From a virus, in the IMG/VR virus record IMGVR_UViG_3300037483_001478, positions 71,989-135,988 of that record: a DNA stretch of 64,000 nt; one strand, 5' to 3'. Below the pieces are notes generated by a model. That model saw only the letters and a list, made by a program, of their open reading frames with translations. It was not told where the DNA came from and did no database searches. Below, one piece after another: positions 12,182-47,285 of the stretch (position 1 is its first letter; every line of letters begins with the position of its first letter). The position numbers and the translations under genes are program-made.

Positions 12182-14167
12182 ATGCATTCTCAGCCTTTGT
12201 TTCTGGATTCTGCCCTGCTGTTCGAAGGGGCTGAAAAGCTGGCCGGTACTCTTACCCGGCTCAGTGACAATGTCGACACGTGGCCCCAAGAGGTTATTCA
12301 GGAGGCCTACAAGCAGGTACCTTACCTGAGCGACTTTGAGGCGAACGTCGTCCTCGACAAGATTGATGAGGAGCGCGGATTTGCTTTTGGGTCGGTCGAG
12401 GTGCGCCCCAAAACTGCCAAGACCCTCGAAGAGCAGCAGATGGCCGGAGGAGTCAAAGCGCACATCCCCATTATCGTCAAAGAACAGCTCCTGAGCCCCC
12501 TAGATGTGTTCATGGTGGGCAAGCAGTACCACCATCTCACTGAGGGCAAGCTGCGCTCGGCGCTGTTCCAGCCAGACTTCTTTGACGCAACGCGCATGCG
12601 GCCCTACGACCCTTCGCTTGTATACGACCTGCTACCTCCTACCAGGATGGGCGGCGGCATGGGCTCGGGGGTGAAGATGGGCTCGGCAGAGCTGCCCCTA
12701 CTGCCCATGCTGCATTACACCGTCAAGGCAGCGCACAGCGACCGTATGCGGGAGGCAATGCAGGACCCTTCAATCCTAGCGGCCGCTAGCGCTAGCCCTG
12801 AAGGAGTGAAGGCAGCGTTCTTGTCGGCAGCGGGTCTGCAGGTGTCTTCGCCCACAAAGATCGCCGAGGCTTTGTCTGAGCGAATCCGGCCCAATGTCGT
12901 CCAGATTACCAAGCTCGGTTCTCGGCGGGCCCTGGTCAAGTGGGCCAACACCGACATGTACGCGCCCCAGGAAGAGGAAATGCCTCTTTCCACAGCGATG
13001 GACATGATGGGGCAGGAAGACGAGGTCCAACAGCTCGATGCCGACGGCACGATTACCTTGTCCCCCAACCCTGTAGTCAAGAAGACGCTGGAGGCAGAAG
13101 AGGTTGATGTGGCCAAGTCCTTTGGCCTTTGGAAGGTACAAGACGTCACGGGAAATACGCTAGTAGGCTGGGTGTTCCCCAATCTCTTGTCGCTCGACAT
13201 GTCCTCCATGCCCCTGAGCTTATTCACCAATGGCTCTCAGTACGCCCTACAAGGCGACATAGCAGGAGTAGCCGCGGGCAAATCGACGGACATCCCAAAG
13301 GGCATACCGAGGGGGTACGGCGCGCTCTACTACATCGATCACGGTACAGCACGCTGCTTTGTGCCGATGACTGTCAACAACACGTACCGCGGCCCTGACG
13401 GCTTGGTGCGGTACATGGCTCAGACTGACCTCGGTGAGCACGTGATGTTCTCGTTTGCTGACGGCCTGAAGACCGTGGTCAAAACAGGAACAAATGAGTA
13501 CGCAGTACCTACTACCGTTAGCTGGCTGCCCCTTCGGGGACAAACCGAGCTCGTCGAGAACCCCATGGGGTTCTCGAAGGTGGCTAAGTTGACCAGTACG
13601 GTGGAGCTCATCAGCGATGGGGCAACTTGGTCGTACCGCGGGGCAGGGGTGGCGAAACTAGCCTCTTCTCAGACCAAGTTCCTTTCGCGACGCGACGCCG
13701 AGTTCATGGGAGCCTCCCTCGGAGTAGAGCGCTCCTTCTTGAAAGAAGCCCTAGATTCCTCCAAGCGCACAGGCCACCCGGTAGAGTTTGTGGGGGTACG
13801 CCCTATTACGCTGTTGCGGGACAAGCTGGCAGAGGCCAAGTTACAGGTGCAAGGTGACTTGGCCGACCTGCCGGTGCCCATCCACAACTACTTCCTGGTC
13901 AAGGAAGCTACGCTTCTCGATGACGCGCTTACCGCGGACAAGATCCTCGGCCTGGGCTTCATCAACGCCGAGAATGTGGGAACGTTTGTTGACATGCTGC
14001 CGGACCTCGAGCGCACTTCCACGAAGCTGGCGGAGCTCCTCATCGCAGTGCGTATCGGTTTGAAAGATGTCCCTGAAGTAGCGGTTGAGCGTATGCTCAA
14101 AGCCCTCGAGGATGTCATCGGGGGCTTGAGATCTTTGAAGCAACAAGAACAAGTGACCATGCAGTAG
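12182..14167 (+). CDS. Hypothetical virion-associated protein (661 aa)
   Basis: Long ORF with AGGAG RBS in the structural operon; contains EKLA and AKVAKL motifs. Confidence 0.75.
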   Translation: MHSQPLFLDSALLFEGAEKLAGTLTRLSDNVDTWPQEVIQEAYKQVPYLSDFEANVVLDKIDEERGFAFGSVEVRPKTAKTLEEQQMAGGVKAHIPIIVKEQLLSPLDVFMVGKQYHHLTEGKLRSALFQPDFFDATRMRPYDPSLVYDLLPPTRMGGGMGSGVKMGSAELPLLPMLHYTVKAAHSDRMREAMQDPSILAAASASPEGVKAAFLSAAGLQVSSPTKIAEALSERIRPNVVQITKLGSRRALVKWANTDMYAPQEEEMPLSTAMDMMGQEDEVQQLDADGTITLSPNPVVKKTLEAEEVDVAKSFGLWKVQDVTGNTLVGWVFPNLLSLDMSSMPLSLFTNGSQYALQGDIAGVAAGKSTDIPKGIPRGYGALYYIDHGTARCFVPMTVNNTYRGPDGLVRYMAQTDLGEHVMFSFADGLKTVVKTGTNEYAVPTTVSWLPLRGQTELVENPMGFSKVAKLTSTVELISDGATWSYRGAGVAKLASSQTKFLSRRDAEFMGASLGVERSFLKEALDSSKRTGHPVEFVGVRPITLLRDKLAEAKLQVQGDLADLPVPIHNYFLVKEATLLDDALTADKILGLGFINAENVGTFVDMLPDLERTSTKLAELLIAVRIGLKDVPEVAVERMLKALEDVIGGLRSLKQQEQVTMQ

Positions 14168-14176
14168 GAGTACCCT

Positions 14177-15100
14177 GTGGCCCACCCAAGCGAAAACTAC
14201 GTCAAGTACATGATCTTGCGCGGTTGGAGAGATCCTGAGCCCCCGGCACAGGATACTTTGTCGAGTAGCCTACAGTTGTTTGGCCTCCCTCCGCTCCTTG
14301 AGCACCAGTTTACAGCCCTCATGGCGAGTATGAAGCCGCCCGAGGACCTGGACCTTTCCGATCCCAAACACCGGGGTACCATCGACTACACCAAGCACTT
14401 GCGGATCTACTCGTTGTGGTTGCTAGATGAGGCGGCGACGCGGGTCCTCAAGGAGATCGTGGGTCATTCCCAGCTGATGCACATCATCAATGTCCTCTTG
14501 ATGGGGCGTCTTCCTTTGGACGTCATCTGCCAGAAGGTAGCTCTCAAGTTCCGACTGGTAGAGGAGGTCACTCCATCTATGCTGGAGGTATACCGCCACT
14601 ACTTTTGGAATTTTGACGCAGCAGGCTACCGCGAATGGGAGCAGATGCTGGCGGGCGACCCCTACAGGGATCGCTACCTCAGCAGCCTGTACTGCGGGGA
14701 AGACCAAGCCCTATTCCGCGCCGGGTTCACCCCTAAGGTCGACAACCTTGCGGCAATACGTGAGGCCTTTCGCCAGGTTTACTTCCGCTTGGAAGCGCTT
14801 CGAGGGCAGGATGATGAGGCCAGCGTCAGTCGCCTTGCCCGCTTGAGCCGGGAAGCCAGGGCGTTGTACGGCGTCTTGCAGGACAACGGCAGCGGGCTGA
14901 ACGAGCAGATGAAGGAGCTGAAACGCTTCTTGATGCTCAATCGGGTGCCTACCCTTGCTGAGATCGCTGCGATCGTCAACAAGGACATCGGGGGAAGCCA
15001 CAGCGGGGATTCTCAAGGGTCATACGTTATCCCCATGAAGGAGCTGGAGGACGACAATGAGCGGGATGAAGATACCGGAATGGGCCCGTACCTCACGTGA
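14177..15100 (+). CDS. Hypothetical protein (307 aa)
   Basis: GTG start with AGGAG RBS; co-linear in the operon. Confidence 0.75.
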   Translation: MAHPSENYVKYMILRGWRDPEPPAQDTLSSSLQLFGLPPLLEHQFTALMASMKPPEDLDLSDPKHRGTIDYTKHLRIYSLWLLDEAATRVLKEIVGHSQLMHIINVLLMGRLPLDVICQKVALKFRLVEEVTPSMLEVYRHYFWNFDAAGYREWEQMLAGDPYRDRYLSSLYCGEDQALFRAGFTPKVDNLAAIREAFRQVYFRLEALRGQDDEASVSRLARLSREARALYGVLQDNGSGLNEQMKELKRFLMLNRVPTLAEIAAIVNKDIGGSHSGDSQGSYVIPMKELEDDNERDEDTGMGPYLT

Positions 15101-15626: not shown

Positions 15627-17274
15627 CGAATTCTTTGCCCCCGGTCTGCCAGAGCGCAAGATTTCCCCTCTCCCGACAGTCAAGAAACCTCAGGTGTGGG
15701 AAATGTCGGCGCACCCCCATGAGGCTACGCGGGCAGGCCTTCACATCGATCTGCGGCTGGGGGACCCGGCCACAGGCATAGCCCACTCTTTCGTCTTGCC
15801 TAAGGCCGACGAGCTCCCCAAACCAGGGGAAGCCAAGCGAGTTATCCCTACCTACGACCACACCCTTCCGTATTTGGACTTCACAGGTCGTATCGAGTCA
15901 GAGTACGGGAAGGGGGTTGTGCGCGCGGGCAGGCGAGAGCAGGCTGATGTTTACCATGCTGACCCTACAGACCCTGCAAGCACCAAGCTGAGGTTCAATC
16001 TTTACGGCGGAACCAACCCGGAAGAGTTTGCAATCCGCAAAGACCAAAAAGGCCGGTGGTTTCTCCACAATAAAACCCAAACGCGAGAGAAGCGCCCAGA
16101 CCTGCCGGTGGGAAAGCCTACCTACAAGGAGACCGAGGTCGACAAGGTAGACCCTGATGACCCCGCCCAGGTGATGATGCCTAAGCTCGACGGCGCTCAC
16201 GTGCTGATCGACCTCAAAGCGGGCCGCTCACCTCGGGTCTTCTCGTACAGGGTAGCTAAAAAAGCCCCCACAGGTCTCATCGAGCACACGCACAAGCTCC
16301 CTGAGCTCCTGGAGAAGAAGGTACCCAAGGAGCTCGACGGACTTATTCTTCGGGGAGAGCTCCTTGGGATAGACAAGGACGGTAAGGCCATTCCTGCGGA
16401 GGTCATTGGGGGCTTGCTCAACTCGAAGGTGTGGGAGAGCCGGGACAAACAAAAGCGGGATGATATCAAGCTGCAGGTATTTCCTTTCAGCACGGTGAGT
16501 CGAAAGGGAGAGAACCTAGAGAATGCGGCGTACTCCGACAAGCTCAAGGTGTTGGAGTACGTCAGTAAGGTTCTTCCGGCCCTCAAAGTACCCGAGGTAG
16601 CCCGCACGCCGGAGCGCAAGAAGCAGTTGCTCGAGGAGATTGGGAAAGGGAAGCACCCTTTGACCACTGAAGGCGTGGTCCTAGTGGAACTCGACAAGCC
16701 CTCGACGCCCATCAAGGCCAAATACGCGCCCGACCACGATGTCTACATACGCGATGTGCACCCAGCCATCAGCGGCAAAACAGGGGAGCCGCACGGACGG
16801 GTAGGGTCTGTGAGCTACTCCTGGGGCCCCAATGGGCCTATCGTGGGGCAGTTTGGTGGCTTCAAGCACGACGTAGCTAAGGACATGCTCGAGAACCCCG
16901 ACAAGTATGTGGGCCGCGTGGCCAAAGTGAAGGCCATGAAGAAGTTTGAGAGCGGCGCCTTATTCCAGCCGCGCTTTGCTGGGTGGCATCTAGACAAGGG
17001 CGACTTGGAGAAAAACGCCATGTGGAAATCCTTTGAAGACGAGCTGCGGAAAATCGCGGCTCGCACTTACGGCCAAGACTTCCTGGGGGAAGAAGCTCTT
17101 GCAAGCATCAAAGGGTACAAAGGCTTGAAAGCCACAGGCGCTAGCCCTGAGGAGCTGCTGCAGGCTAAGAAGAATCTTGCAAAGGCATTTGGCACATACG
17201 CCTTGGGAGCGGCTTCGGACGTCATACCTGCTGCCGCGGCTTCTCGTGCCAAGCTCAAAGGATTAGCACGCTAG
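15619..17274 (+). CDS. ATP-dependent DNA ligase with N-terminal LigD-type 3'-phosphoesterase domain and an unrelated C-terminal tail
   Basis: HEATRAGLHIDLRL and AHSFVLPK (LigD PE-like); ligase motifs KLDG, LRGEL, EGVVL, KAK and OB-fold; ATG 15619 has an AGGAAAG RBS. Confidence 0.8.
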   Translation: MPSEFFAPGLPERKISPLPTVKKPQVWEMSAHPHEATRAGLHIDLRLGDPATGIAHSFVLPKADELPKPGEAKRVIPTYDHTLPYLDFTGRIESEYGKGVVRAGRREQADVYHADPTDPASTKLRFNLYGGTNPEEFAIRKDQKGRWFLHNKTQTREKRPDLPVGKPTYKETEVDKVDPDDPAQVMMPKLDGAHVLIDLKAGRSPRVFSYRVAKKAPTGLIEHTHKLPELLEKKVPKELDGLILRGELLGIDKDGKAIPAEVIGGLLNSKVWESRDKQKRDDIKLQVFPFSTVSRKGENLENAAYSDKLKVLEYVSKVLPALKVPEVARTPERKKQLLEEIGKGKHPLTTEGVVLVELDKPSTPIKAKYAPDHDVYIRDVHPAISGKTGEPHGRVGSVSYSWGPNGPIVGQFGGFKHDVAKDMLENPDKYVGRVAKVKAMKKFESGALFQPRFAGWHLDKGDLEKNAMWKSFEDELRKIAARTYGQDFLGEEALASIKGYKGLKATGASPEELLQAKKNLAKAFGTYALGAASDVIPAAAASRAKLKGLAR

Positions 17275-17283: not shown

Positions 17284-19674
17284 ATGCCATTCAAATCTGA
17301 AGCCCAACGCAGGCTGTTCTACGCCAAGGCGTCCCGAGGCGAGATGCCCAAGAGCATGGTCAGCGAGTGGGAGCATGCGACCCCCAAGGGAAAGAAGTTG
17401 CCGGAGCAGGTGAAGAAAGCCGAAAAGCCTGTTGGGGGTTTGCGGCCTGACGTGGAGCTCTACCCTCATCAGCAAAAGGCTGTCGACAAGCTCGTCAAAC
17501 AAGACGGCAACCTATTGTTGAGCCACGGCACGGGGTCAGGAAAGACTCTTACGTCCATAGCGGGTTTTGAGAAGCTGCGGGAAGCGGGCAAGGCCGAGAG
17601 GGCCTTGGTCGTCACGCCTGCTTCTCTCCGCGTGAACTTCGCCGATAACGGCGTACGCAAGTTCACTGACGGCCGCGCAGCCATCTTCGGCAACAGCCAA
17701 GAAGTAGCCAACGGCATTGCTCGGCAGGTAGACAATCCAGATCCTGGGGCGCGGTACCACGTGGTGGGCTACGAGATGTACCGCAAGGACCCCAAGAAGT
17801 ACATCGAGGCTGCGGGGGCAGACACAGTCATTTACGATGAGCTCCACAAGATCAAGAATGAGGAAGGGGTCACGTCCAAGACGGTAAAGGACGCGCGCCC
17901 CTACCACAGCAACTTCATTGGCCTTACTGGGTCCATCATGAGCAATACACCAGCGGACCTCGTTCCGTTGGTGGACGCCATGACAAACGGCACGCACCGT
18001 CTTGGCAACAAGACTATGTTCGAACGCCGTTTCGTGAAGGAAGACGCCAAGGGCAACAAGACCATCACCAATCCACGCATGGTACGCGGACTATTGGCCC
18101 CATTTGTGGACCACTTTGAGACTAAGGATCTGAACAAAGAGAACGTGCCGAAGAAGCGGATCGAAGAAGTCAAGGTGATGATGAGTCCGCACCAGACGGA
18201 CCTCTACCGTTACACCATTGACCAACTCGACCCCGTGACGGCGCTCAAGTTTCGACTGGGCAAAGGCAAGCTAAAAGAGCGCGAGCTCAATGCGATGTTT
18301 GCCAAGATCATTCAGTCGCGCCAAGTGTCCAATTCGATCCACACCATCGACCGCACTGTAACGCCAGAGCAATCCGCAGAGCAAACCCCCAAGGTGAAGC
18401 AGCTCCTGGATGATGTTCAGGAGCACCTGGGGGAGACCACAGACGGACAGGCAGTCGTCTTCTCCAACCTCATTCATGGTGGAGTAGACGTGCTGACTGC
18501 CGGCCTGAAGGCCAGAGGCGTAGACCACGTCACGTTCATTGGGAAGGGCAATAAGGGCGTTACAGAAGAAAGTCGCCAGAAAGCGGTTCAGGACTTCAAC
18601 TCTGGCGGTAAGAAGGTCATCGTTATCTCCGGGGCAGGCGGGGAAGGTCTAGACCTCAAGAACGCTACGATGTTTGCTTCGCTGGATGGGCACTTCAACC
18701 CCGAGAAGATTCAGCAGGCTGAGGCAAGAGCGGTGCGCGCCGGCGGTCTGGCGCATCGTGACCCAGAAGAGCGCAAGGTGCTAATTCGGCGCTACGTGAG
18801 CGTTGTACCCAGGTCCTTCACTAGAACGGCGCTTGATGTGGCGAATCTTTTGTCGCCTACAGCGCTGGTGAACCGCATCGCAGACCCTGGAGCCCCCATT
18901 CTCTTCAACCCATTCAAGAGAGAGCAGTCTCCCGATGAATGGGTCTACGGGGTAGCAGAGCGCAAGGACAAGCTGAATGCGGCATTCCGGGACCAGCTCA
19001 AGACTTCATCTGCGGAGCCGCATTTTGTCACTACGGATGAGGTAGCAAAAGACCTTGAGAAGGTCGCCCTCAACTTGGTAAAGCATCTTGCTTTCCAAGA
19101 TGAGCTGGAGAAGGTTGCAGGTGTGCAGGACATCGCTCATCAGCCGTACAAGTACAACAAGTCAGACTCCCACATCATGGGGGCTTACTGGAAAGACTTT
19201 GGCGGGAACATCGAAGAGATGACAGATCCCGCCAAAGAGGAGCTCCCCTCAGAAAAAGATCAGTTGAAGGAACAGAAGTACATCGACAACCTGCGCTCAT
19301 ACTACAGGGAAGCTGCCAAAAACAAAGGCGGGGTCACTAAAGCGCCTGTACCCGACCGCAAGACACTGTTGGACGCGGCTCAGGTGTCTTTGATCTCGGG
19401 CGGCATAATGTCTGCCCCCACCACTGCGACCGTCGTCTTTGACCCTATGGTGCCTCCCAAAATAAAAGCTATTTTTGCGGGAGGAGGTTTAGCGCTTGGC
19501 TCAGCCTTGATAGCGGCTCCTACGCTTTACGCGGTCACGCACAATCCTACGTTCACAACTCCCAAAGCAAAAGCAAGCAAGATGTCTCGGTTCGACGACG
19601 AGCAGTTGCGCCAGTTGCTCCGAGGACTTCCCATCACCCAAGAAGTGGTAAAGCGCCAGGATTTCTATATTTGA
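17284..19674 (+). CDS. SNF2-family (SF2) helicase/ATPase with short N-terminal leader and C-terminal extension
   Basis: LYPHQQKAV, HGTGSGKT (Walker A), DELH, LTGS, GGEGLDL, QAEARAVR. Confidence 0.88.
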   Translation: MPFKSEAQRRLFYAKASRGEMPKSMVSEWEHATPKGKKLPEQVKKAEKPVGGLRPDVELYPHQQKAVDKLVKQDGNLLLSHGTGSGKTLTSIAGFEKLREAGKAERALVVTPASLRVNFADNGVRKFTDGRAAIFGNSQEVANGIARQVDNPDPGARYHVVGYEMYRKDPKKYIEAAGADTVIYDELHKIKNEEGVTSKTVKDARPYHSNFIGLTGSIMSNTPADLVPLVDAMTNGTHRLGNKTMFERRFVKEDAKGNKTITNPRMVRGLLAPFVDHFETKDLNKENVPKKRIEEVKVMMSPHQTDLYRYTIDQLDPVTALKFRLGKGKLKERELNAMFAKIIQSRQVSNSIHTIDRTVTPEQSAEQTPKVKQLLDDVQEHLGETTDGQAVVFSNLIHGGVDVLTAGLKARGVDHVTFIGKGNKGVTEESRQKAVQDFNSGGKKVIVISGAGGEGLDLKNATMFASLDGHFNPEKIQQAEARAVRAGGLAHRDPEERKVLIRRYVSVVPRSFTRTALDVANLLSPTALVNRIADPGAPILFNPFKREQSPDEWVYGVAERKDKLNAAFRDQLKTSSAEPHFVTTDEVAKDLEKVALNLVKHLAFQDELEKVAGVQDIAHQPYKYNKSDSHIMGAYWKDFGGNIEEMTDPAKEELPSEKDQLKEQKYIDNLRSYYREAAKNKGGVTKAPVPDRKTLLDAAQVSLISGGIMSAPTTATVVFDPMVPPKIKAIFAGGGLALGSALIAAPTLYAVTHNPTFTTPKAKASKMSRFDDEQLRQLLRGLPITQEVVKRQDFYI

Positions 19675-19681: not shown

Positions 19682-20485
19682 ATGAACTTTACGCTGCGCT
19701 CCTTTACAGACGAACTGTGCAAAATTGCTGGTGCAAAGGGCGAGGGTGAGTACAATTTTGATGTTCCTATCGGAACGGCTTCAGCCATAATGCCTAGTAG
19801 GATGTTAGGAGGATTAGGCGCTGGAGCTTTGTCCTCTCGAATAGTGGATTACCCGCAAGATGCTGTAACCCCGGAACTTGCAGAGGGCTTGCGGCGTAGA
19901 ATTGCGCCCCGTTATTCGAGTCCTATCGATTTGAGCTTAGAGAGCGGCAAGCAGTCTTTATTCTTACCAAGTAACCCTAGGTGGGCTAGGCTGCTAGAAA
20001 AGCATCCTCAACTATCTACGCTCCTTCCGCCTCACGTGACTGTTGAAGATGTGCGGAATGGCAAAATTCTGGCCTCTCCGCATGGGCAAGAATTTCTAGC
20101 GCATGAACTTGGTCATGCTTCTATGGGAAGAGTGCGCGCAGCAATAGGCAAACTTCGTATACCTTTGGCTGGGGCAGGACTACTGGGAGGGCTGGCCGCT
20201 TTAGGGTCTGACGACAATCGAGTGTCTAAGGTGGCTCCTTGGATTACAGCAGCGGGCTACGCGCCTACTTTAGGAGAAGAGGCCTTGGCCAGCATCAAGG
20301 GCTATCGCGGGATGAAATCTTTAGGCGCCAGCCCAGAGGTCCTAAGAGCTGCCAGGAGCAATTTGACGAAGGCATTTGGGACGTACGGGGCTATAGCCGC
20401 AGGAACAACCTTGCCAATTGCCGTGGCTGCGTACTTGAGAGGCAAGGACCGCGGAACTCGTACCAAGGTAGTTCAGGCGGATTGA
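19682..20485 (+). CDS. Putative zinc metallopeptidase / membrane-associated virion protein
   Basis: HELGH (HExxH) at 20102-20116 followed by hydrophobic Gly-rich helices; N-terminal DELCKIA motif. Confidence 0.6.
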   Translation: MNFTLRSFTDELCKIAGAKGEGEYNFDVPIGTASAIMPSRMLGGLGAGALSSRIVDYPQDAVTPELAEGLRRRIAPRYSSPIDLSLESGKQSLFLPSNPRWARLLEKHPQLSTLLPPHVTVEDVRNGKILASPHGQEFLAHELGHASMGRVRAAIGKLRIPLAGAGLLGGLAALGSDDNRVSKVAPWITAAGYAPTLGEEALASIKGYRGMKSLGASPEVLRAARSNLTKAFGTYGAIAAGTTLPIAVAAYLRGKDRGTRTKVVQAD

Positions 20486-24638: not shown

Positions 24639-24708
24639 CTTTATGCCTCCGTGCTAGGGTTTTGAGGGAACTTCAGCCTATGCTACTTCCTACCCAGTGA
24701 GGTTTGAC

Positions 24709-25833
24709 GTGAACGATCTGCCAACGGGCCTGGCGGCCAAGACCACGTACGCATCTTTGAGTCCTGCAGACCTCGAATCAATCGGCAAGCGGGCAAGCCA
24801 AGAATACCTCAATAGCGGCATCTCGTTGAACGATGCCGTTGTCAAGCTGGCCCGCGAGTGCCCCAGCATTTCGCCCCATCAGGTCCGCCGCGTGGTGGAG
24901 TTTACCAACCGGGAGACCTTTCAGCGTCTCTTTGAGAAGCAGGCAGGGGATAAGGTCGTCGACTTCCCCATCGCGGACCCTCGGGTAGTTCTGTTGGACT
25001 TAGAATCTGGGGTCATTCCGCATTGCATGCAGCTTCCTGCGGACGAGTACGCGCTCCCCCCGGCCAAGCTTGCTTCGGCTGTCAGTACGGATGTCCTCAT
25101 TGCCCGCGAATTCGGGATGGACATCGCGGAAAAGATAGAGATGTCGGCGAGGGAAGCGGCACCGTTGGAGAAAGTCGCGGCAGTGGCTGACCGTATCATT
25201 GCGTCAACAGAGGACGGTACCGCAGGCACAAATGCTCCGCTCACCGTAGACGCAGCGCCTATTTCTGCCAAAAACGACCGCTACGAGGACGAGGATGTGG
25301 CCTCGGAAAAAGTGGCTGCTTGGGCGCGCAGTCGCGGGAAAAGCCCCTACCCCCAAGCCGAGCCCCACCTTGACTTGATTCAAGCTCGCGAGAAGATGGC
25401 AGCAACCTTGGACGCTTTGCGAGACATGGAACATCTCAACAATGCCTTCAAGAAAGAAGCCCGTCAGGGCTTTTGCCGTGCGGTGACGCAGCATGTCGCG
25501 GGAGGTGGAAGCCTCGGGGAAGTGGCCCATGTCATGGGGTCTGTAGACCCTAGCCCTGTATTTGCCAAGGTGGCTATGGCTTTCGTGATACCCCACTTGC
25601 AAAGGTTTGGGCTCAATGTGCCCGAACTTCAGGCAGAGACACTGACCTATGAGATGACCAAGGGGGCCTCGGCACGTCAGCCCAACCCCGAGAACTCGAT
25701 CGTTGTAGCGTACGCAGCTATGCTGAAGACGGCGCGGGAAACCCCTGTACTCCGCCGCGCAGTGCTAAGTGCGGAGCAGGCGTACAATGCCCTTGACCAA
25801 CAGTTCAAGAACATCGCACGAGGTGTAGCATGA
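24709..25833 (+). CDS. Hypothetical head-region protein
   Basis: Long ORF (track start 24697; GTG 24709 has a TGAGG RBS); several EK[QV]A motifs. Confidence 0.75.
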   Translation: MNDLPTGLAAKTTYASLSPADLESIGKRASQEYLNSGISLNDAVVKLARECPSISPHQVRRVVEFTNRETFQRLFEKQAGDKVVDFPIADPRVVLLDLESGVIPHCMQLPADEYALPPAKLASAVSTDVLIAREFGMDIAEKIEMSAREAAPLEKVAAVADRIIASTEDGTAGTNAPLTVDAAPISAKNDRYEDEDVASEKVAAWARSRGKSPYPQAEPHLDLIQAREKMAATLDALRDMEHLNNAFKKEARQGFCRAVTQHVAGGGSLGEVAHVMGSVDPSPVFAKVAMAFVIPHLQRFGLNVPELQAETLTYEMTKGASARQPNPENSIVVAYAAMLKTARETPVLRRAVLSAEQAYNALDQQFKNIARGVA

Positions 25834-26444
25834 GTGTTACCCAGAAGTTGGCTGCGGCCGGCCATTTGACTCCCGAGCAGGCTGCTCGGGTAACGGAACG
25901 CGTGCGTTCGTTCAAGACGGCTTTGGCGCACGACTCCAGCTTGCGAAAGCAAGCAGATGGCTTTTTCAGTCGGGTAGGTCAGAGGCTAGGCCCCACGGCG
26001 GAGCAAACTTTGGCTCATGCCATCGCTGCAGGGTCCCTAGGCCTCGGGGTATCCACGGGGGCCGCTGGCGTACAGGCAGTGATTGACCATGTGCGCAAGG
26101 CTCGCGCCTACAAGGCGATGATTGACGCCAATCCTGAGCTGGCTGATGCTAACCTGGATAGGGTTCAGGCGCTCCACAACAGCCTTTACCGGGTAAATCC
26201 TCAGTACGCCCGAGACCCTCTCATTGCGGGGGAGTTCGTTAAGGGTCTGATCAACCAGGCTCAAATACCGATGCAAGCGTTTACGAGTACTGCCTTACGG
26301 GAACACCCCAACCAAGCCCTAGAGTTTGCCACTAAGATGCTTGCCACCAAGGTTCCGGATAAGCCTCTGCCCACCTCGAGAAGAGGTAGCCCAGAAGACG
26401 CTCCTCTGGATCCGACCGCCGCTGCTTACCTTCGAGGGTACTGA
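25830..26444 (+). CDS. Hypothetical head-region protein with glycine-zipper segment
   Basis: ATGA overlap; QKLA/RKQA motifs; AGSLGLGVSTGAAG. Confidence 0.7.
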   Translation: MSVTQKLAAAGHLTPEQAARVTERVRSFKTALAHDSSLRKQADGFFSRVGQRLGPTAEQTLAHAIAAGSLGLGVSTGAAGVQAVIDHVRKARAYKAMIDANPELADANLDRVQALHNSLYRVNPQYARDPLIAGEFVKGLINQAQIPMQAFTSTALREHPNQALEFATKMLATKVPDKPLPTSRRGSPEDAPLDPTAAAYLRGY

Positions 26445-32467: not shown

Positions 32468-32498
32468 GCGGCAAACGTCAGAGAAAGGATCAGCCAAA

Positions 32499-32858: not shown

Positions 32859-32906
32859 CCAGCATCCCTGAGTCAAAAACACGTAGTACGAGGAGCGGAT
32901 TGAAAC

Positions 32907-33362
32907 ATGGCAACCAACAACTTCAAACTGACCAGTGAATTCCAAACGCTCGGCCGCCGCTCGTTCCCGTTGGCGGATCCGACCATTCTCAACCCCACCA
33001 ACGCCCAACCTCTGGTCGACGGTGAGTGGCTGCAGTTGAACACCTCCTACCAAATGGCTCGAGGCACCGTGAACCCGGCGATCGTTCCGAGCTTCGCGTA
33101 CTTCGCCGAGCAAGGGCGCTACGAGACCCAAGCTTTGGGTAAGGGGCCTTTCCTCTACCTGAATAGCTACGAGGCCGACACCCTGATCATGGACGCCACC
33201 GGCCTCGTGGTCGGCGACGCGTTGGAAGTGGCCGACGTCACTATCGGTGGCATCGTGCGCCGCGCCCTGCAGGAGTACACCTCTGGCCTCATCGTGGGCT
33301 ACGTGACGCGCCTGCCCGCGAACAACAACAACTACCTGCGTTTCTTCAAGACGCTTGGCTGA
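32907..33362 (+). CDS. Probable capsid decoration (cement) protein
   Basis: 151-aa beta-rich protein directly upstream of the major capsid protein; GAGGAG RBS. Confidence 0.55.
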   Translation: MATNNFKLTSEFQTLGRRSFPLADPTILNPTNAQPLVDGEWLQLNTSYQMARGTVNPAIVPSFAYFAEQGRYETQALGKGPFLYLNSYEADTLIMDATGLVVGDALEVADVTIGGIVRRALQEYTSGLIVGYVTRLPANNNNYLRFFKTLG

Positions 33363-33418
33363 TAGGTGCCGATGGCGGCCCTAGAACATTCTGAAAGGCA
33401 CAAGGAGCAAGAAAAGTC

Positions 33419-34543
33419 ATGAGTATGGTTCAAGCAACCCTGGAAATGTTCAGCCAGCGCCTCGATACCCCCGAGGGTAGGACGAAGACCGCAGAGTACG
33501 CGGGCTCGTGGATCCGAGACAAGCTGCGCGAGGTATCGTTCTGGCGCAACGTGATTCCACCGGAAAACGTGACCAAGAACGAATGCCAGCGGTCGGTCAA
33601 TCACGACACGTTGCTCAAGATCGTCGACATCGAGCCCCGAAGCCGGGCGATGGCCATCGATTTCCGCTCGCAGCCGACGGCGCGCATCATCGACGGCAAG
33701 CGCTACGAAATCCCGTTCTTCACGATCGCCTCGGAGAAGTTCGAGAAGCCGGAGCAAGAGCTGCTGGCCTATGAGATGCCCATCACCAAGATCATCGAGG
33801 ACAACTCGGTGAAGGATATGCAGGAGATCGAGGATCGGGAAGGCCTGCGGCACACCGAGTCGTCCGTCCAGGCGATGCAGACCGAGACCAACACGGTCAC
33901 TACCACAGAGTACAACGCCACCAACATCCTTGCGGCGGCGGCCAGCACGACGGCGGTGTCGATCATCAAGGGCGAGCTCGCTCTTGCCGGCGGCGGCGTG
34001 GACTTTGCAGTGCGCCCCGTCCAGCGCCCAGATTTTGTGAACCTCTTCAAGGTCCTCGACGGGCGTCGCCTGCGCTCCGAGCGCGTCCTCATCACCGAAG
34101 TTGACCACGACGACGTGCTGCAGTGGACCGTTGAAGACTTTGGCGACAAGATCCAGTCCGAGACCGTGGTCGACGGCTACAAGTACAACACCCTGTTGGG
34201 CCGCAAGGTGATCCGCACCATCAAGACGGACATCCTGCGTGCGGGCAATGTGTACTGCTTCACGGCTCCGCAGTTCTTCGGGAAGTTCTACATCCTGAAC
34301 AACACGAAGTTCTACATCGACAAGATTGCCAACATCATCACCTGGATGAGCTGGGAAGACATCGGCACGGGCATCGGCAACATCGCAGCATGTGCCAAGC
34401 TTGAGCTCTACCGCGGTTCTGTCCGCCCAACGGCGACAGACACCGGCTTCGAAGCGCGCATTCCGGCCGAGGAAGAGGCGCTGGGGGCGGAGAACAACAG
34501 GTTGGCCACTGGCCTACGGTTCCCGCAGGTCTCCCAGTACTAG
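33419..34543 (+). CDS. Major capsid protein (HK97-fold)
   Basis: 374 aa; strongest C/G-ending codon bias in the window; AAGGAG RBS; position after protease/scaffold/decoration; followed by a long hairpin. Confidence 0.75.
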   Translation: MSMVQATLEMFSQRLDTPEGRTKTAEYAGSWIRDKLREVSFWRNVIPPENVTKNECQRSVNHDTLLKIVDIEPRSRAMAIDFRSQPTARIIDGKRYEIPFFTIASEKFEKPEQELLAYEMPITKIIEDNSVKDMQEIEDREGLRHTESSVQAMQTETNTVTTTEYNATNILAAAASTTAVSIIKGELALAGGGVDFAVRPVQRPDFVNLFKVLDGRRLRSERVLITEVDHDDVLQWTVEDFGDKIQSETVVDGYKYNTLLGRKVIRTIKTDILRAGNVYCFTAPQFFGKFYILNNTKFYIDKIANIITWMSWEDIGTGIGNIAACAKLELYRGSVRPTATDTGFEARIPAEEEALGAENNRLATGLRFPQVSQY

Positions 34544-35656: not shown

Positions 35657-36178
35657 ATGTCCAGCTTGAGCGGGTCCGATTCTCAAGGCGGTATTCCCGA
35701 CCTGAATGACCCGCTTCTGCGGAAGGTGGCGGAGTACGTACGGGAATACCTTCGCGATTACCCTGAACTCAATCGACTCACCGCGGGCATGGACCATAGT
35801 CCGCGGTTCCTTGTCTGGGCTGTTCTTGATACTTTGAGCGACTGGTCTGCTACGCCTCCTTTCATCGGACAGAATCTGCAGCTCATCATCTCTCGCAATT
35901 GGATCAGTCTGTTTGCGCGGGGAGTGGCTATCACAGCCATGGAATCCCTAGGGATTCTGCACATGCGCAATTACTTGGCGTACTCCGACGGCGGAGTGAA
36001 CGTGCAGACTGAGAATCCTCAGATGATCAACGCTTGGCTTCAGATGATGAAGGCCGAATACGAGACAAAAAAACAGCGGGTCCTCATTGCTCTCAACATT
36101 GAGGGCCTATTGAATGTGGGGGTAGGAGGCGTAGCCTCGGAATACTTCTACTTGAACTCTTTTTTTGGGCAGTATTAA
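35657..36178 (+). CDS. Putative head-tail adaptor (neck) protein
   Basis: 173-aa helical protein in the neck position; YSDGGVNV motif. Confidence 0.5.
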   Translation: MSSLSGSDSQGGIPDLNDPLLRKVAEYVREYLRDYPELNRLTAGMDHSPRFLVWAVLDTLSDWSATPPFIGQNLQLIISRNWISLFARGVAITAMESLGILHMRNYLAYSDGGVNVQTENPQMINAWLQMMKAEYETKKQRVLIALNIEGLLNVGVGGVASEYFYLNSFFGQY

Positions 36179-36203
36179 GTACGCCAATAGCACTGGAGCT
36201 GGC

Positions 36204-37010
36204 ATGTCTGAGCTAGACGGGGCACTGCGCATCGCCTTGAAGGCACGGCAGGCTTTGGCGGCAAGCCAAAGAGTGCTGGGGAAGCCTCAATCTTCGCCCC
36301 ACCTAGGAAAGCGCGACATGAAGAAAGTCGACAGGGCCACTACAGCTTTGCGCGCTCTGACGTCGTTACGCCCAAGCCACATCAAAAGCGCTTCTGCACG
36401 CTACTTCTACGAGCTTCAGGCGCCTTCTACGGAAGAGCTTCTCGGCAAGCCCTTCTGCAAGCTTGCGGGATCTATGGGCCGAGACCCCTGGGAACTGGCA
36501 GAAGAAGTAGTTTGCTGCCTTGATAGGTTTGAGGGTCTGGGTAAGACCGCTTCAGACCCTCGGGCGCGGGAGTTGGCGCAGTTTTACTGTGTTTGGGGGG
36601 AAGACCTCGAAAAGCAAGCGGCTAACTGGTTTTCAGGGCTCAAGGCTGTAGGTAAGAACCTGCTTAGCAAGGCTGCGCCCGCCAGCCAATTGGCGAGCAA
36701 AGGGGTCATAAAGAGCGAGCTTCCTTCTGCAAGGACGGCCTTTCGCCAAGCGGTTCCGTATAAAGTAGCACCCAAAGCAGCGCCTACGGCTGGCCCGCGT
36801 TCTGCGGGCCAGCTCGTACGTCAGATGGCGCCGCCTGCGTCAGCAGGTAAGGCACCCAAGCAGATTGCCAAGAAAAAAGGTCCAGGGTGGTTTAGGGTAG
36901 GAGCAGGGGCAGCTGCGGTAGGAGTACCCCTGCACCATTTCTTGACCGCCAAGACCCCACAACCGCAGTACGGCCCAGGGATGGGCGCTCAATACGGAGG
37001 CTACGCCTGA
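36204..37010 (+). CDS. Hypothetical virion protein
   Basis: GGAG RBS before ATG 36204; IKSA, GKTA, EKQA motifs; C-terminal hydrophobic segment. Confidence 0.65.
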   Translation: MSELDGALRIALKARQALAASQRVLGKPQSSPHLGKRDMKKVDRATTALRALTSLRPSHIKSASARYFYELQAPSTEELLGKPFCKLAGSMGRDPWELAEEVVCCLDRFEGLGKTASDPRARELAQFYCVWGEDLEKQAANWFSGLKAVGKNLLSKAAPASQLASKGVIKSELPSARTAFRQAVPYKVAPKAAPTAGPRSAGQLVRQMAPPASAGKAPKQIAKKKGPGWFRVGAGAAAVGVPLHHFLTAKTPQPQYGPGMGAQYGGYA

Positions 37011-37867
37011 TGCTGAACCAGTACCTTGAGAAAATGGCGAGCCAAGCCCGCCAAGCTAACGAGATGGCCTCTATGTCTGCGGCTACTCTTGCCAAGATGG
37101 CTGGGGTCAAGCTGTCCGAGGGCGTATGCCCCAACTGCGCGGCGGGGATGGAGAAGTCCGCAGGCCAGTACAAGTGTGCTTCTTGCGGCATGACCAAAGC
37201 CGCTAAGAGGGACATGCCTTCCTTCGCGAAGCAGGACCGCCCCGCCAAGGTGAAAGAGGTCTACAAGGCCATCAAACGGGATCACCCCAACATGCCTGCC
37301 GAGGTCAAGGCGCGTATTGCTTCACGCAAGGGTAAGGCGAGCCCACAGGCGCGTAAGCCTCCAGAAACGGGCGGCCCCGCGTACAAGGCCCCCTTGGGCT
37401 ACACGCGGAGCAAGGGCAAGTACGTCAAGTCCGCGGCCGCCTTGTTGCCCATTGGGTACGAGGCAGGGCGTGCCATTGCCAAAATGGCTTCTATAGCCAA
37501 AACGGCCCAAGATGAGGGCCCCCAGCTAGATCCCGAGAATTTCCGTGAGGCCTACGAAGAAGCGATGGCCCGCGAAGACATCGGCAACCGTATGCGCCGT
37601 GGAGGCATTCTCGGAGGTATTGGAGGCACTGCTTTGGGGGCAGGCCTTGGGTCAGTTCCTGGCGCACTGATGGGCAGCCGCCTTGGCGCAGGAGCAGGGG
37701 CTCTCCTCGGAGGGGCTGGAGGTGCCTATCTGGGGCACCGGATGGGTTCGCAGTTCCAAGGTCGCGAGGCTTTGGCAGACCGGGCCGTCCAAATGGCTCG
37801 AGCAATCAACGCTTATCGTGCGGGGAGGGAAAGGGGGGCGCAATCCCCTTTCTACCCAGGACGTTGA
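37010..37867 (+). CDS. Hypothetical virion polyprotein with Zn ribbon and glycine zipper
   Basis: CPNC...CASC; GGILGGIGGTALGAGLG...GAGAGALLGGAGGAYLG; K-x-A sites. Confidence 0.65.
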   Translation: MLNQYLEKMASQARQANEMASMSAATLAKMAGVKLSEGVCPNCAAGMEKSAGQYKCASCGMTKAAKRDMPSFAKQDRPAKVKEVYKAIKRDHPNMPAEVKARIASRKGKASPQARKPPETGGPAYKAPLGYTRSKGKYVKSAAALLPIGYEAGRAIAKMASIAKTAQDEGPQLDPENFREAYEEAMAREDIGNRMRRGGILGGIGGTALGAGLGSVPGALMGSRLGAGAGALLGGAGGAYLGHRMGSQFQGREALADRAVQMARAINAYRAGRERGAQSPFYPGR

Positions 37868-38289: not shown

Positions 38290-39168
38290 ATGCTCACAGT
38301 TACCTCAATCAAGGTTCTGAGCTTCGACCTCGACTACCTCGACGTGTTTTGGGAGCTGCAAGATACAGCAGAGGAGGTGGAGAGGTACGACTTCTACATA
38401 CTGCGCAGCGTAGATGGTATGGCTGGCCCTTACGAGGAGCTAGCAGGCCCGTTCTACAACACCTTTCTGTTTCGCGACTCCAATGTCCGACGCTTTCACT
38501 TGTGGCGGAACTACTTCTACAAGCTGAGGATCGTAGAGCGGGCCAGTGGAGACGAGCGTAGCTTCGGGCCAGCCTGGTTGCAGGCTCCTCCTGATCTCAT
38601 CGCAATGGAAATACGACGGCGAGAGGCGCTTTTGTTCAAGGAGTTCGCAGGGCGGTTGTTGCTCTATTACCCAGTTATTACTTCTGGGCAGCGCTGCGGC
38701 AATTGCTGGGATTTGGGGACGCGAGGTAACACCATCGGGCGCCCGGTGCAGCAAAACTGTGTTACGTGCTTCGGCACGACCTTCGTCAAGGGATTTTCTT
38801 CCCCTTTCCCTGTGTTTGCTCAGATAGACCCTTCAGCCAAGTTGACTCAGCGCACCGAGCTCGAGGAGCAGCAATTCGTAGAAACTACCGGGAGAACTAC
38901 CGCCTTCCCACCAATGAAGTCGAAAGATATGCTGATCGAAGGAGAGAACATCCGTTGGCGCGTGAAGCAGGTGACTCCAACGGAAAAAGGACGAGCTATC
39001 GTACGTCAAGAGTTGGTGCTTCGTCGCTACCCTCAGGACGATGTGAAGTACAAAGTACCCGTGAACTTTGACGTTCTCACTGAGTTCTCGCCGGCGCGAG
39101 AAAGGTCCCGCCCAATGACCCTGGCAATCCCTGCACACGAGCAGGTTGATGACCTTACGGAGTCCTGA
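38290..39168 (+). CDS. Putative head-closure/neck protein
   Basis: 292 aa; CGNC...CVTCFGT motif; WRV..VT..EK..IVRQEL pattern of neck proteins; position before tail genes. Confidence 0.5.
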   Translation: MLTVTSIKVLSFDLDYLDVFWELQDTAEEVERYDFYILRSVDGMAGPYEELAGPFYNTFLFRDSNVRRFHLWRNYFYKLRIVERASGDERSFGPAWLQAPPDLIAMEIRRREALLFKEFAGRLLLYYPVITSGQRCGNCWDLGTRGNTIGRPVQQNCVTCFGTTFVKGFSSPFPVFAQIDPSAKLTQRTELEEQQFVETTGRTTAFPPMKSKDMLIEGENIRWRVKQVTPTEKGRAIVRQELVLRRYPQDDVKYKVPVNFDVLTEFSPARERSRPMTLAIPAHEQVDDLTES

Positions 39169-39533
39169 TGTCTGCACTAATGTATCGATCTTTGCTCGAC
39201 GAGCTCTCGCTTATCAAGCAAGCTCAAGAGGGGCCTACTCAGGAGCCCGAAAGTGCTGGAGGCATAGGTCGCTTGCTGGCTAGAGGACTTCTCGGCGCAG
39301 GTGTTGGTGGTCTGGCTATGGGCGCAGGACTTGGCGTAGGGCAGATGTTGCTGGACAGGCCCCGCATCCAGGCGTTGTGGGAGCGGCTACCTCCTAGGGC
39401 ACAAATGGGAATTCTAGCAGGTACGGGACTTCTGTCAGGCGTGACGGGAATGATGGGTGCAGACGCCTACCACAATTGGGTAAACAAGCCCCCGCCGAGG
39501 ATGACGGATGAGCAACAACAGCCCGAGCAGTAA
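39168..39533 (+). CDS. Small glycine-zipper membrane-like protein
   Basis: TGATG overlap; LLDELSLIKQA leader; two Gly-rich hydrophobic segments. Confidence 0.65.
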   Translation: MSALMYRSLLDELSLIKQAQEGPTQEPESAGGIGRLLARGLLGAGVGGLAMGAGLGVGQMLLDRPRIQALWERLPPRAQMGILAGTGLLSGVTGMMGADAYHNWVNKPPPRMTDEQQQPEQ

Positions 39534-46027: not shown

Positions 46028-46083
46028 TCTAGGGTTTCGCCAGGGAGTATGGTAGTTTGGTTCGTGTTGAAGGAGGTATTCAG

Positions 46084-47070
46084 ATGGCTCGTATGTCAAC
46101 TTGGAGTCCTTATCAGCGCTATGTGCAAGCAGGGCTGGTTGACGGTCGAATTGGCCCCCAACTCGGGTAACTGAGTTGGTGCACTGGGTGAATTGCTGGA
46201 ACCCTCAGCGCGTTATGGCGGTGGGAATCAGCAGCCGAGCTGCAGGAAGCGACTTGAGTACTGCAGAAGGTTCAGAGACTAGAGCGGTGAGCATCGCAAG
46301 CAATAACCTGCTCCACGAGCGCCCGGCGTCCTACGGGACGAAGATATAGTCCGACACCCGAGGGAAACCTTGGGAGAGAGTCTAAACAGCTCTCGTAACG
46401 GTTGCAGTTCCTCAATGCATCGTTCACCTTGTTGGCGGCGGGGCCTCCTCGCCTGGCCAACATCGGCAGCCTCACGTTTGCTTCGGACGCTTTGGCGAGC
46501 GGGGCAGGGGATGACATTGTTTTCCCCATTGGCATCGTGCAGAACTTCAACCTGAGCCACAACCGCCAGTTCAACAGGATCTGGGAGGTGGGCTCAGAGC
46601 GATCGTTCTTCATCGCCGGCCGAACGGTAGGTCAGGTGGGGCTGAGCCGGATCATGTACCATGGTCCGTCGCTGCTCCGCGTGTTGTACGCCTACTACCA
46701 GGACTTGCAGCCTCCAACCTTGGTACCGTCGGTCATTGGGGCTTTCAACGTGGGCGCTCTCACGGTGGCCAATCCCCATGATGTCAAGATCGCTCCTGGG
46801 TACGAAAACCTGTACCTCAACCTGGCCTCGGACTTGTTCAACCAGCCAATCGGGCTGATGGCGTATTTCCGGGACAGCAATGAAGATACAGTGGGCTCTA
46901 TCTACTTGGAGAGCTGCTACGTCCCGAACCACACGCTGGCGACAGACGCGCAGGGCACGATCCTGCAAGAGAGCGCAGCGATCCAATTCGAGCGGGCGGT
47001 GCCTGTGGCAGTAAGCGCACTGGCACTAGTCGACCTCAGCGCCTCTGATTCTGCGTTGGCAGGCCTGTAA
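46084..47070 (+). CDS. Tail tube protein, spliced: exon 1 46084-46146, exon 2 46405-47070 (242 aa)
   Basis: AGGAGG RBS 7 nt before ATG 46084; exon join gives ...AGLVDG|QFLNASFTLLAAGPPRL...; tube-like motifs PIGIVQNFNL, RIWEVGSER, YLESCYV..H; follows the sheath. Confidence 0.85.
46147..46404 (+). ncRNA. Group I self-splicing intron (258 nt, no ORF) in the tail tube gene
   Basis: P AATTGCTGGAA (46191), Q AATCAGCAGC (46226), R GTTCAGAGACTAGA (46270), S AAGATATAGTCC (46341); P7 GACTA/TAGTC; P1 U-G splice pair; P10 GAATTG/CAGTTC; terminal G; GNRA loops in L2 (GTAA) and L9 (GAAA). Confidence 0.93.
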
Positions 47071-47285
47071 TGTCGGCTTCTGGGCGCATACTGACGCTGG
47101 CCAAGCTGGCGGCCAATGTGCCTTCACTCCCGGGCCTTACGGGGCCTGGGTCTGCCACGCTCATCCCTACCAATCCCCACGGCACTGACGGGCGCTTGCA
47201 GCGTCTTACAGCTATCCGAGCGAAGATCCAAAAGAGCCAAGGCCCCCGGGCACTCGCTCCAAGAATCGCTTCCCCATCTCCTTAG
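47070..47285 (+). CDS. Small basic hypothetical protein
   Basis: TAATG overlap with the tube stop; LAKLAA motif. Confidence 0.55.
   Translation: MSASGRILTLAKLAANVPSLPGLTGPGSATLIPTNPHGTDGRLQRLTAIRAKIQKSQGPRALAPRIASPSP

Follow-up and report, generated by a model that had tools for sequence, protein, structure and literature searches.

Introduction

Herpesvirus assemblins cleave at the consensus V/L/I-X-A↓S, and the host protease Prp trims the capsid and scaffold leaders of staphylococcal phage 80alpha. The prohead protease of phage T4, gp21, has the catalytic pair His85 and Ser140 (PMC12991175); it cuts after L/I-x-E and removes capsid-targeting leaders (Mullaney and Black 1996, as cited in PMC12991175). 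The proteases phiKZ gp175 and SPN3US gp245 process head and ejection proteins at (S/A/G)-X-E (PMC10052503, PMC5694885); gp245 cuts after AXE, removes multi-site propeptides of 20-254 residues and cleaves itself (PMC10052503). In herpesviruses, UL26 fuses a protease to a scaffold and is cut at R and M sites; pseudorabies assemblin ends in vivo at Ala225, which lies at the release site (PMC4498786). Iyer et al. 2017 described polyvalent proteins, including InPase-bearing ones, and proposed that a protease releases their domains and that zincin peptidases process them (PMC5512222). Here we analyze a 64,000-nucleotide window of viral DNA (bases 71989-135988 of the 176,864-bp contig IMGVR_UViG_3300037483_001478), in whose head region (12182-47285) a short motif, K-x-A, recurs in unrelated proteins alongside a gene for a predicted prohead protease.

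A sequence-only reading of the window had proposed that K-x-A is the phage's prohead-protease site, that DEL-x-K-[IV]-A is a capsid-targeting tag, and that the two delimit swappable enzyme cargo. Our results argue that the phage's own prohead protease recognizes and cuts K-[LVITQM]-A followed by S, A or G. We consider this model as a whole probable, and the claim that the motif is a protease site, taken without the rest of the model, more probable still. Below, feature coordinates are window positions unless marked as genome positions, and ↓ marks a predicted cut. Almost all window genes lie on the + strand, as do the enzymes, polyprotein, head proteins, domains and motif sites that we place.

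Results

K-x-A is specifically enriched in the head region

We counted every residue pair of the form a-x-b (351 pairs) and compared the counts with per-protein shuffles. K-x-A ranked first of the 351 pairs in the head region, where 115 copies were observed and 62.4 expected (z 7.7). In contrast, the 188 proteins encoded outside it contained 207 copies, with 194 expected (z 1.0); the difference between head region and remainder that the proposal called for is thus present. The whole excess was carried by K-[LVITQM]-A (68 observed, 19.3 expected, z 12), while K-x-A with any other middle residue occurred 47 times against an expected 43.6. Extended forms were also in excess: K-[LVITQM]-A-[SAG] was found 34 times (5.2 expected) and [LIMF]-x-K-x-A 51 times (11.2 expected). 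We found zero excess over shuffles for K-x-S, K-x-G, R-x-A, A-x-K, K-A or K-x-x-A. Because these reversed, shifted and related pairs show none, the enrichment is not an effect of Lys/Ala helix composition. As a positive control, we ran the same blind scan on T4 gp67, gp68, gp21 and gp22; I-x-E and L-x-E ranked first and second, and these top pairs are the known gp21 cleavage motif.

The motif logo from this genome and its relatives reads [DE]-[DE]-[LMIF]-[EV]-K-[LVTI]-A-[SA]-A. Two separate signals had been put forward, K-x-A and DEL-x-K-[IV]-A; the logo shows a single motif, of which DEL-x-K-I-A is the full-consensus form, and we therefore abandoned the two-signal reading. From these sequences we infer the full consensus [DE]-[DE]-[LMIF]-x-K-phi-A↓[SAG], with the cut after Ala. 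A position matrix built from the relatives identified 23 sites of at least 4 bits (2 expected). Six copies of the strict form F-x-[DE]-E-[LM]-x-K-[IV]-A are present in the genome, where approximately none would be expected. Small proteins (75, 155, 157 and 267 amino acids [aa]) carry four of them N-terminally, and the other two lie near the C-terminal ends of the ligase core and the SNF2 core. The individual motifs quoted by the sequence-only reading all translate where it placed them (17038-17058, 19051-19119, 19709-19729, 39198-39224, 30284, 36600 and the open reading frame [ORF] at 47070).

The excess is concentrated in the proteins encoded at 12182, 24697, 26444, 29367, 30539, 32499, 36165 and 37010, together with a 377-aa protein just upstream of the window. 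N-terminal positions are favored as well: 12 of 29 head-module proteins carry K-x-A within their first 30 residues, compared to 4.2 expected (p<0.001), while the rest of the genome has 21 such proteins against 21.2 expected. These carriers include the capsid protein, a scaffold-like protein and Gly-zipper proteins, such that, as in T4, a short N-terminal leader ending in the proposed site is shared by unrelated proteins. A test for motif depletion in the RNA polymerase and the portal lacked power, with the polymerase mildly enriched (10 copies, 5.1 expected).

The motif is conserved in relatives

In pooled relatives, K-x-A occurred 1238 times, compared to 609 expected (z 30), and each of 11 relatives taken singly gave a z of 8-13. 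The Lys and Ala of the motif are more conserved (0.59) than other Lys (0.36) or other Ala (0.33) residues (p 2e-5 and 3e-9, respectively), and the sites form conserved islands, scoring 0.63 against 0.36 in their flanks (p 7e-8). We also ranked the 150 best representatives of the protease family, clustered at 50% identity, into four bins; K-x-A was the top pair in the non-protease parts in all four (z 13-21). Similarly, K-x-A was the top pair (46 vs 21) in the head proteins of Salmonella phage Arash (OQ632216.1, L026), an "orphan" cultured phage that is distantly related and syntenic; identity between the two phages is 26-38% for the portal, polymerase, helicase, protease and capsid proteins. 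Together, the specific enrichment, the conserved sites and the recovery of the T4 motif by the same scan indicate that K-x-A behaves as a prohead-protease site, as had been suggested.

The 26444 gene begins with a gp21/assemblin-fold protease domain

The gene at 26444 encodes a 966-aa protein (26444-29344), recognized in Pfam through an InPase domain. An AlphaFold (AF2) model of its highly conserved N-terminal domain (aa 1-255; 26444-27208), built on a 75-sequence alignment, had a predicted local distance difference test score (pLDDT) of 90.8; an earlier model from an 11-sequence alignment (pLDDT 57, with meaningless Foldseek matches) was discarded. In an exhaustive structural search (VIA), the best match in the PDB was T4 gp21 (5jbl_A, Z 9.9, root-mean-square deviation 2.9 Å over 130 aa), followed by the assemblins of varicella-zoster virus (1vzv, Z 8.1), human cytomegalovirus (8j3s, Z 6.2) as well as Kaposi's sarcoma-associated herpesvirus (1fl1, Z 5.2), with unrelated folds at Z 5.4 or less. 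Foldseek on the PDB with the good model returned nothing at E 1e-3, with gp21 at E 0.08. Its matches in BFVD (E 1e-5 to 1e-6) were phage G gp19, phiRSL1, PaBG and many entries named prohead protease.

The predicted catalytic residues are His119 (26798-26800) and Ser175 (26966-26968), the latter in the sequence TSMGC. H119, S175, M176 and G177 are invariant across the 75 sequences, and 56 residues separate H119 from S175, compared to 55 for the gp21 pair. As would be expected of an active site, inteins with LAGLIDADG domains are inserted exactly between SMG and C in 24 of 38 long family members (e.g., L001:93-6188). The window's own protease has no intein, though its terminase has one, as does the portal according to the sequence-only reading. 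From the fold match and the invariant residues, we conclude that the 26444 product starts with ~250 residues that are, as modeled, a gp21/assemblin-fold serine protease with His119 and Ser175 as its predicted catalytic pair, in keeping with the earlier assignment of the Ser in TSMGC. The family is large, with 3,991 representatives at E 1e-3 or better (~4,000 clusters at 50% identity).

Three predicted autoprocessing sites bracket the domain: K30-V-A32 (26531-26539), K245-L-A247 (27176-27184) and K274-A-A276 (27263-27271). K30 is nearly invariant and A32 invariant in the 75 diverged family members; K245 is invariant in close relatives, and K-x-A sites terminate the protease domain. A near-invariant K30-x-A32 and a K-x-A at the domain end form a pattern of autoprocessing. 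The MLTKLA sequence at the protease start, which had been listed among the motifs, is probably no site, and we rejected it: the family always has Lys4, but S, L, A, T and C all occur at position 6.

The protease gene lies in the head module, upstream of the scaffold and capsid genes. The module reads terminase, 378-aa protein, 204-aa protein, protease, scaffold-like proteins and major capsid protein (MCP), and the order in Arash is identical.

The protease heads a polyprotein with K-x-A at its domain borders

Within the polyprotein, an InPase cargo domain (aa 474-599; 27863-28240; Pfam PF18823, E 3.3e-36) is followed by a C-terminal domain (aa 620-966; 28301-29341) that is present in all orthologues. 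These orthologues range from 586 to 2031 aa; the protease and the C-terminal domain are common to them, the inserts vary, and the InPase is missing from two (L024 and L025). The C-terminal domain always begins just past e-K-[VT]-A and then ..LEDLF, regardless of what lies farther upstream, and K-x-A is found just upstream of it in 13 of the 13 relatives whose C-domain start was located. It contains further sites at 28943-28951, 28985-28993 and 29075-29083, and K848-L-A is kept in 9 of 10. Neither Pfam nor NCBIfam matched the C-terminal domain, and no resemblance to a scaffold could be detected; if the parallel with herpesvirus UL26 holds, it would be the scaffold or capsid-binding part.

The proposal that the InPase is bordered by the motif held on one side only in this genome. 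Downstream, K-V-A occurs twice (28265-28273 and 28295-28303); upstream, the border is K-Q-S (27764-27772) rather than K-x-A, which is found there in 6 of the 7 relatives that have an InPase anchor. The idea of swappable cargo also requires qualification. The InPase is by far the commonest cargo, with other domains rare (DUF5661, cupin and GNAT, in other family members), and much of the variation in polyprotein length consists of inteins.

Predicted substrates include scaffold-like, core and capsid proteins

The acidic, helical, scaffold-like 119-aa protein (32499-32858) has K-x-A at 32538, 32595, 32631, 32688 and 32742, five sites where 1.3 are expected, and its family is enriched 4.2-fold. 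All five are at identical columns in 17-19 of 19 relatives, with the middle residue varying. Similarly, the acidic, Gly/Ala-rich 293-aa protein (29367-30248) has seven copies, of which six are kept in 12-14 of 15 relatives (2.05-fold enrichment in the family). The 378-aa protein encoded between the terminase and the protease (24697-25833), a predicted prohead-core substrate, contains 11 sites against 2.7 expected (p 1e-4), eight of the form K-[LVITQM]-A (0.8 expected), and its orthologues are enriched 3.4-fold. In the 661-aa protein (12182-14167; leader ..GAEKLA↓G) there are 12 sites, compared to 3.3 expected (p 2e-4), with seven K-[LVITQM]-A (1.2 expected). Twelve copies are also found in the Ala-rich 642-aa protein (30539-32467; leader ..REKVA↓S), in which a Gly-zipper cassette follows K-Q-A (31133-31162).

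Leaders were evident in the MCP (33419-34543; phrog_2522, major head protein), whose conserved K23-T-A25 (33485-33493) would end a 25-aa propeptide; this site is kept in 19 of 22 relatives, and the corresponding position in the Arash MCP reads ..GLVKEA↓G. K-x-A is present at residues 23-35 of the Arash capsid protein and of gp220, gp221, gp222 and gp223. The 204-aa protein (25830-26444; leader MSVTQKLA↓A), homologous to Arash gp221, an annotated structural protein, keeps K6-L-A in 6 of 8 relatives and has three K-[LVITQM]-A where 0.5 are expected. The adjacent 281- and 285-aa proteins (36165-37867) are rich in K-x-A, with an internal GEDLEKQA (36600-36620), a leader MLNQYLEKMA↓S and a Gly-zipper; their orthologues range from 200 to 858 aa, and in two relatives (L014 and L017) a single ORF matches both.

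DEL-type leaders occur on small proteins. The 92-aa protein (30248-30526) has a degenerate one (30284-30313) ahead of a basic mature part (isoelectric point 11.2), and its orthologues start M...MLASF-x-DEL-x-KI-[AGS], eight residues from the first Met. The 121-aa Gly-zipper protein (39168-39533) has the leader ..SLLDELSLIKQA↓Q (39198-39224), with SFFDELTKIA and AFTDELLKIA in orthologues. Without their leaders, most of the small leader-bearing proteins would be basic, like T4 internal proteins.

Several further observations concern these proteins. A Gly-zipper-like hydrophobic cassette (31250-31430, 37600-37765 and 39225-39470) is common to the 642-, 285- and 121-aa proteins, each time just past a K-x-A, and similar hydrophobic Gly/Ala segments are present in the SNF2 tail, the HExxH protein described below and a 139-aa protein. 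Proteins with such segments may be membrane-inserting ejection proteins. Outside the head module, a 155-aa protein (genome 25084-25551; L031:9084-9551) has a perfect leader, ..AFSDELCKIA↓G, on a basic body with a SWIM-like C-x-C...C-x-H, and the same leader is found on its 75-aa neighbor and on a distant 157-aa protein (L034). Pfam searches of the large proteins near other DEL-leader genes were uninformative. Finally, a putative gene, a 71-aa ORF (47070-47285) that begins at the stop of the tail-tube gene, has ..LTLAKLA↓AN near its N-terminus.

DEL motifs mark the ligase, SNF2 helicase and HExxH protein

The ligase gene (LigD_N plus ATP-dependent ligase, from 15592) has DELRKIA (17038-17058) 13 residues past the K-N-A at the core end (17011-17019), and a tail follows (17059-17271). 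By self-BLAST, tail residues 498-557 are 60% identical to residues 197-258 of the 267-aa HExxH protein; the segment in common is C-terminal and 62 aa long (17083-17262 and 20270-20455).

The SNF2 helicase (from 17284) opens with a 46-aa leader module (17284-17421) ending in V-K-K-A (17410-17421), and DLEKVA and F-Q-DELEKVA (19051-19119) precede a 185-aa tail with a hydrophobic segment. SNF2 orthologues keep K-[VM]-A and then F-x-EELEKI-[SG]. In one relative (G005; L027:34-3831) the ligase and SNF2 form a single 1265-aa ORF with the junction ..KKKA↓ and the leader MGLLLFSKQA↓S; this fusion has no ligase tail, DEL motif or SNF2 leader. In another (L028), the 46-aa leader stands at the head of an ORF of its own (154 aa), which ends ..VKHA↓, and SNF2 opens with MRKLA↓. 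These events, together with the InPase and C-domain borders, bear out the expectation that module gain, loss, fusion and fission in relatives map to K-x-A. The 46-aa module (MPFKSEAQRRLF...KKLP..VKKA) is itself mobile, and in L029 it heads a 76-aa ORF ending SFLDELSKIAALH.

The HExxH protein (19682-20485) contains HELGH (20102-20116) and the leader ..SFTDELCKIA↓G (19709-19729). It has no match in Pfam, PHROG or NCBIfam and a weak structural resemblance to zinc peptidases.

Virions of Arash contain the helicase homologue (1148 spectra) and the RNA polymerase subunits at high spectral counts (PMC10585845). Of the enzymes considered here, only these two have counterparts seen in the virions of this distant relative; packaging of the ligase and the HExxH protein is not supported as it was put forward.

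Neighboring genes and contig ends

The portal gene (460-3753) has weak PHROG support, and its product is 33% identical to the Arash portal. The single-chain beta/beta' RNA polymerase (2068 aa; 4844-11050) contains N-V-K-L-A↓A-G (aa 1475-1481; 9266-9286, + strand) in a variable linker, where Arash splits the enzyme into gp206 and gp216. The position-matrix score of this motif is low (-0.8), and the same linker in relatives has K-K-A, K-Q-A, K-L-S, K-L-G or a deletion; on this weak evidence, it is a possible processing site. An intein-bearing large terminase begins at 21367, and a weak tail-sheath match lies at 43964. A blastn search of 26444-34400 against cultured phages gave zero DNA-level matches; the capsid protein is common to 25 uncultured relatives, at 58-78% identity. 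Three Vibrio phages (D181, D148 and D69) are also in culture and distantly related, with matches through the protease domain only. Both contig ends (genome 1-60 and 176805-176864) consist of the same short repeat (..CAATGGCCATGGCCATTGAAACGCCCACCGAACGT..); a tandem repeat of the termini or a wrap-around of the assembly may explain this.

Discussion

A model for head-protein processing

Our results suggest the following model, in which the protease would be made as a polyprotein comprising the protease, a variable insert, the InPase and the conserved C-terminal domain. This polyprotein would co-assemble within the prohead with the other motif-rich proteins. The protease would then free itself at K30-V-A32 and at K245-L-A247 or K274-A-A276, and the InPase and the C-terminal domain would be released at their flanking sites. 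The 119- and 293-aa scaffold-like proteins and the 378-, 642- and 661-aa proteins would next be cut into pieces, and N-terminal leaders of 6-26 residues would be removed from about a dozen proteins, including the 25-residue leader of the MCP. F-x-DEL-x-K-I-A may form an amphipathic helix ending in the cut site, most likely a T4-like capsid-targeting sequence; it would bring small basic proteins and enzyme tails into the prohead and then be removed. A targeting role for this helix is plausible, given its own conservation in SNF2 orthologues. Because a site tolerates any neighbor, gene fusion, fission and domain insertion would accumulate at the sites. Cleavage at the sites, like the targeting, packaging and injection of the enzymes, is what we infer from these patterns.

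We hold a broader claim only tentatively: that the ~4,000-cluster family at large uses a Lys-phi-Ala code, with the sites serving as recombination-tolerant joints for enzyme cargo (InPase, ligase, SNF2, GNAT and cupin) carried between the protease at the head and a capsid-binding tail, and F-x-DEL-x-K-I-A as a portable capsid-delivery tag.

Several observations weigh against the proposal that K-x-A is cut by a gp21-like protease. On the side of the enzyme, neither the domain nor 10 family representatives matched Pfam (including S77, S78 and S21) or NCBIfam, profile searches of PDB sequences with the protease returned nothing, and the sole local hhalign match to T4 gp21, which pairs S175 with gp21 S140, is not significant alone. 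On the side of the motif, the scissile bond is placed only by the pattern of Ala followed by a small residue. The ligase and SNF2 helicase have no overall K-x-A enrichment, only their DEL-type copies, and conserved K-x-A occur inside folded domains where cutting is unlikely (MCP K302-I-A304, InPase K571 and protease K52), so the motif alone is not sufficient. Across 62 family members, 194 of 353 insertion borders are no more than 12 residues away from a site (113 expected); this count favors the model, but it is drawn from related, non-independent proteins and from BLAST segments, which tend to end at conserved residues. From the cultured relative, the text and supplements of the Arash study list 116 proteins, and we found no peptide-level data or termini in them (PMC10585845); furthermore, the Arash helicase has neither leader nor tail, yet is present in virions.

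Alternative explanations

In SNF2 orthologues the DEL helix stays conserved even though its last residue is S or G, which cleavage by itself does not explain. This favors the idea that K-phi-A, and the F-x-DEL-x-K-I helix especially, is an uncut binding motif that docks onto the capsid interior, the portal, the scaffold or DNA. Conserved islands are typical of any linear motif, some sites lie within folded domains, as noted above, and one face of a helix would hold F, L, I and A (positions i, i+4, i+7 and i+8). We nevertheless consider simple binding unlikely. The strict Ala, the small residue that follows it and the closely spaced copies in scaffold-like proteins fit protease subsites; the sites bracket domains and end N-terminal leaders; near-invariant copies stand at both ends of the protease domain; and the scan that identified the motif recovers a true cleavage motif in T4. 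Binding and cleavage are, moreover, compatible: the T4 capsid-targeting sequence does both.

We regard it as improbable that the sites are cut by some other enzyme, whether a host protease, for which Prp provides a precedent, or the HExxH protein. The HExxH gene adjoins those for the ligase and SNF2 and itself carries a DEL leader, and the protein could act in the manner of polyvalent-protein metallopeptidases, as in the zincin proposal of Iyer et al. 2017 (PMC5512222). However, it matches no peptidase family model, and it was not detected in the complete relatives G001-G003 or in Arash; we therefore rejected it as the conserved processing enzyme. Because these three relatives and Arash are still enriched for K-x-A, the conserved partner of the motif is the gp21-fold protease, whose family the motif tracks over 150 diverged representatives.

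That the pattern is functionless, a product of Lys/Ala-rich helical composition, internal repeats or shared ancestry, is very improbable indeed: several carriers are Ala-rich and helical and some have modules in common (the Gly-zipper cassette and the ligase/HExxH tail), but the comparison with per-protein shuffles takes composition into account, none of A-x-K, K-A, K-x-x-A and R-x-A is in excess, self-BLAST shows no general paralogy among carriers, the motif residues are more conserved than other Lys and Ala and than their flanks, and Arash, whose proteins are 26-38% identical, has the pattern too.

Significance

If processing by the gp21-fold protease at K-x-A is correct, this motif would join L/I-x-E (T4) and S/A/G-x-E (phiKZ) as a third, distinct code by which the head proteases of tailed phages choose their cuts, and one closer to the herpesvirus Ala↓Ser rule. 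It would give a role to a very abundant family of proteins that lacks annotation, allow the mature termini of dozens of head proteins to be predicted in uncultured phages (~60 to 200 kb), and suggest a route by which virion-delivered enzymes are loaded and exchanged. The DEL helix would be a candidate tag for packaging foreign proteins and, should the broader claim for the family also hold, part of a general, engineerable head-loading system. Because cultured relatives exist (Arash and the Vibrio phages D181, D148 and D69), the code is directly testable.

Comparison with known systems

The sequence-only reading had presented this locus as a new system, which overstates the case: its logic is that of T4 gp21 and the capsid-targeting sequence, the AXE processing of phiKZ and SPN3US, herpesvirus UL26 and polyvalent proteins. 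The mechanism is already known from T4, phiKZ and herpesviruses; the K-x-A specificity and the large, uncatalogued protease family are new, and our literature search found no report of a K-x-A prohead-protease motif.

The closest parallel is with T4. The protease shares the gp21 fold (Z 9.9), with correspondingly spaced Ser and His residues; the proteins of the scaffold, core and capsid, as well as internal ones, contain a short motif, at which cutting is here predicted; unrelated proteins, often small and basic, have short leaders at the N-terminus that end in the site; and the same enrichment scan recovers each phage's motif. The two differ in the motif itself, K-phi-A followed by a small residue here and L/I-x-E in T4, and in the protease, which here lacks sequence-level similarity or a Pfam S77 match and heads a polyprotein of 586-2031 aa with enzyme cargo. 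In addition, the tag here is also internal and near C-termini.

With phiKZ and SPN3US, this phage shares the character of a large myophage with a virion RNA polymerase and, as predicted from sequence, many processed head proteins, multi-site propeptides and a self-cleaving protease. Unlike them, it has a different motif, a single-chain fused RNA polymerase and cargo fused to the protease.

The polyprotein resembles herpesvirus UL26 in its N-terminal protease of the same fold (Z 5.2-8.1) and conserved C-terminal domain, in the sites between these two parts and near the C-terminus, and in the Ala before the predicted cut and the Ser or other small residue after it. In contrast to UL26, Lys at P3 is the dominant determinant here and an InPase is inserted between the protease and the C-domain; the C-terminal part of UL26 is a scaffold, whereas that role is only predicted for the C-domain here.

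Finally, the locus recalls polyvalent proteins: an InPase of their type lies in a multidomain protein of the late virion module, several effector domains share a chain (protease, InPase and C-domain; ligase and SNF2 in L027), the SNF2, ligase and HExxH genes adjoin one another, and the idea of a protease freeing domains is common to both. The differences are that processing is here proposed to be carried out by a prohead serine protease at a defined motif, that there is no embedded zincin, the HExxH being in a separate 267-aa gene that most relatives lack, and that no MuF, DarB or N4-polymerase core is present. The present case thus combines a gp21-fold protease, Lys at P3 and Ala before the predicted cut, polyprotein cargo and a portable helical leader.

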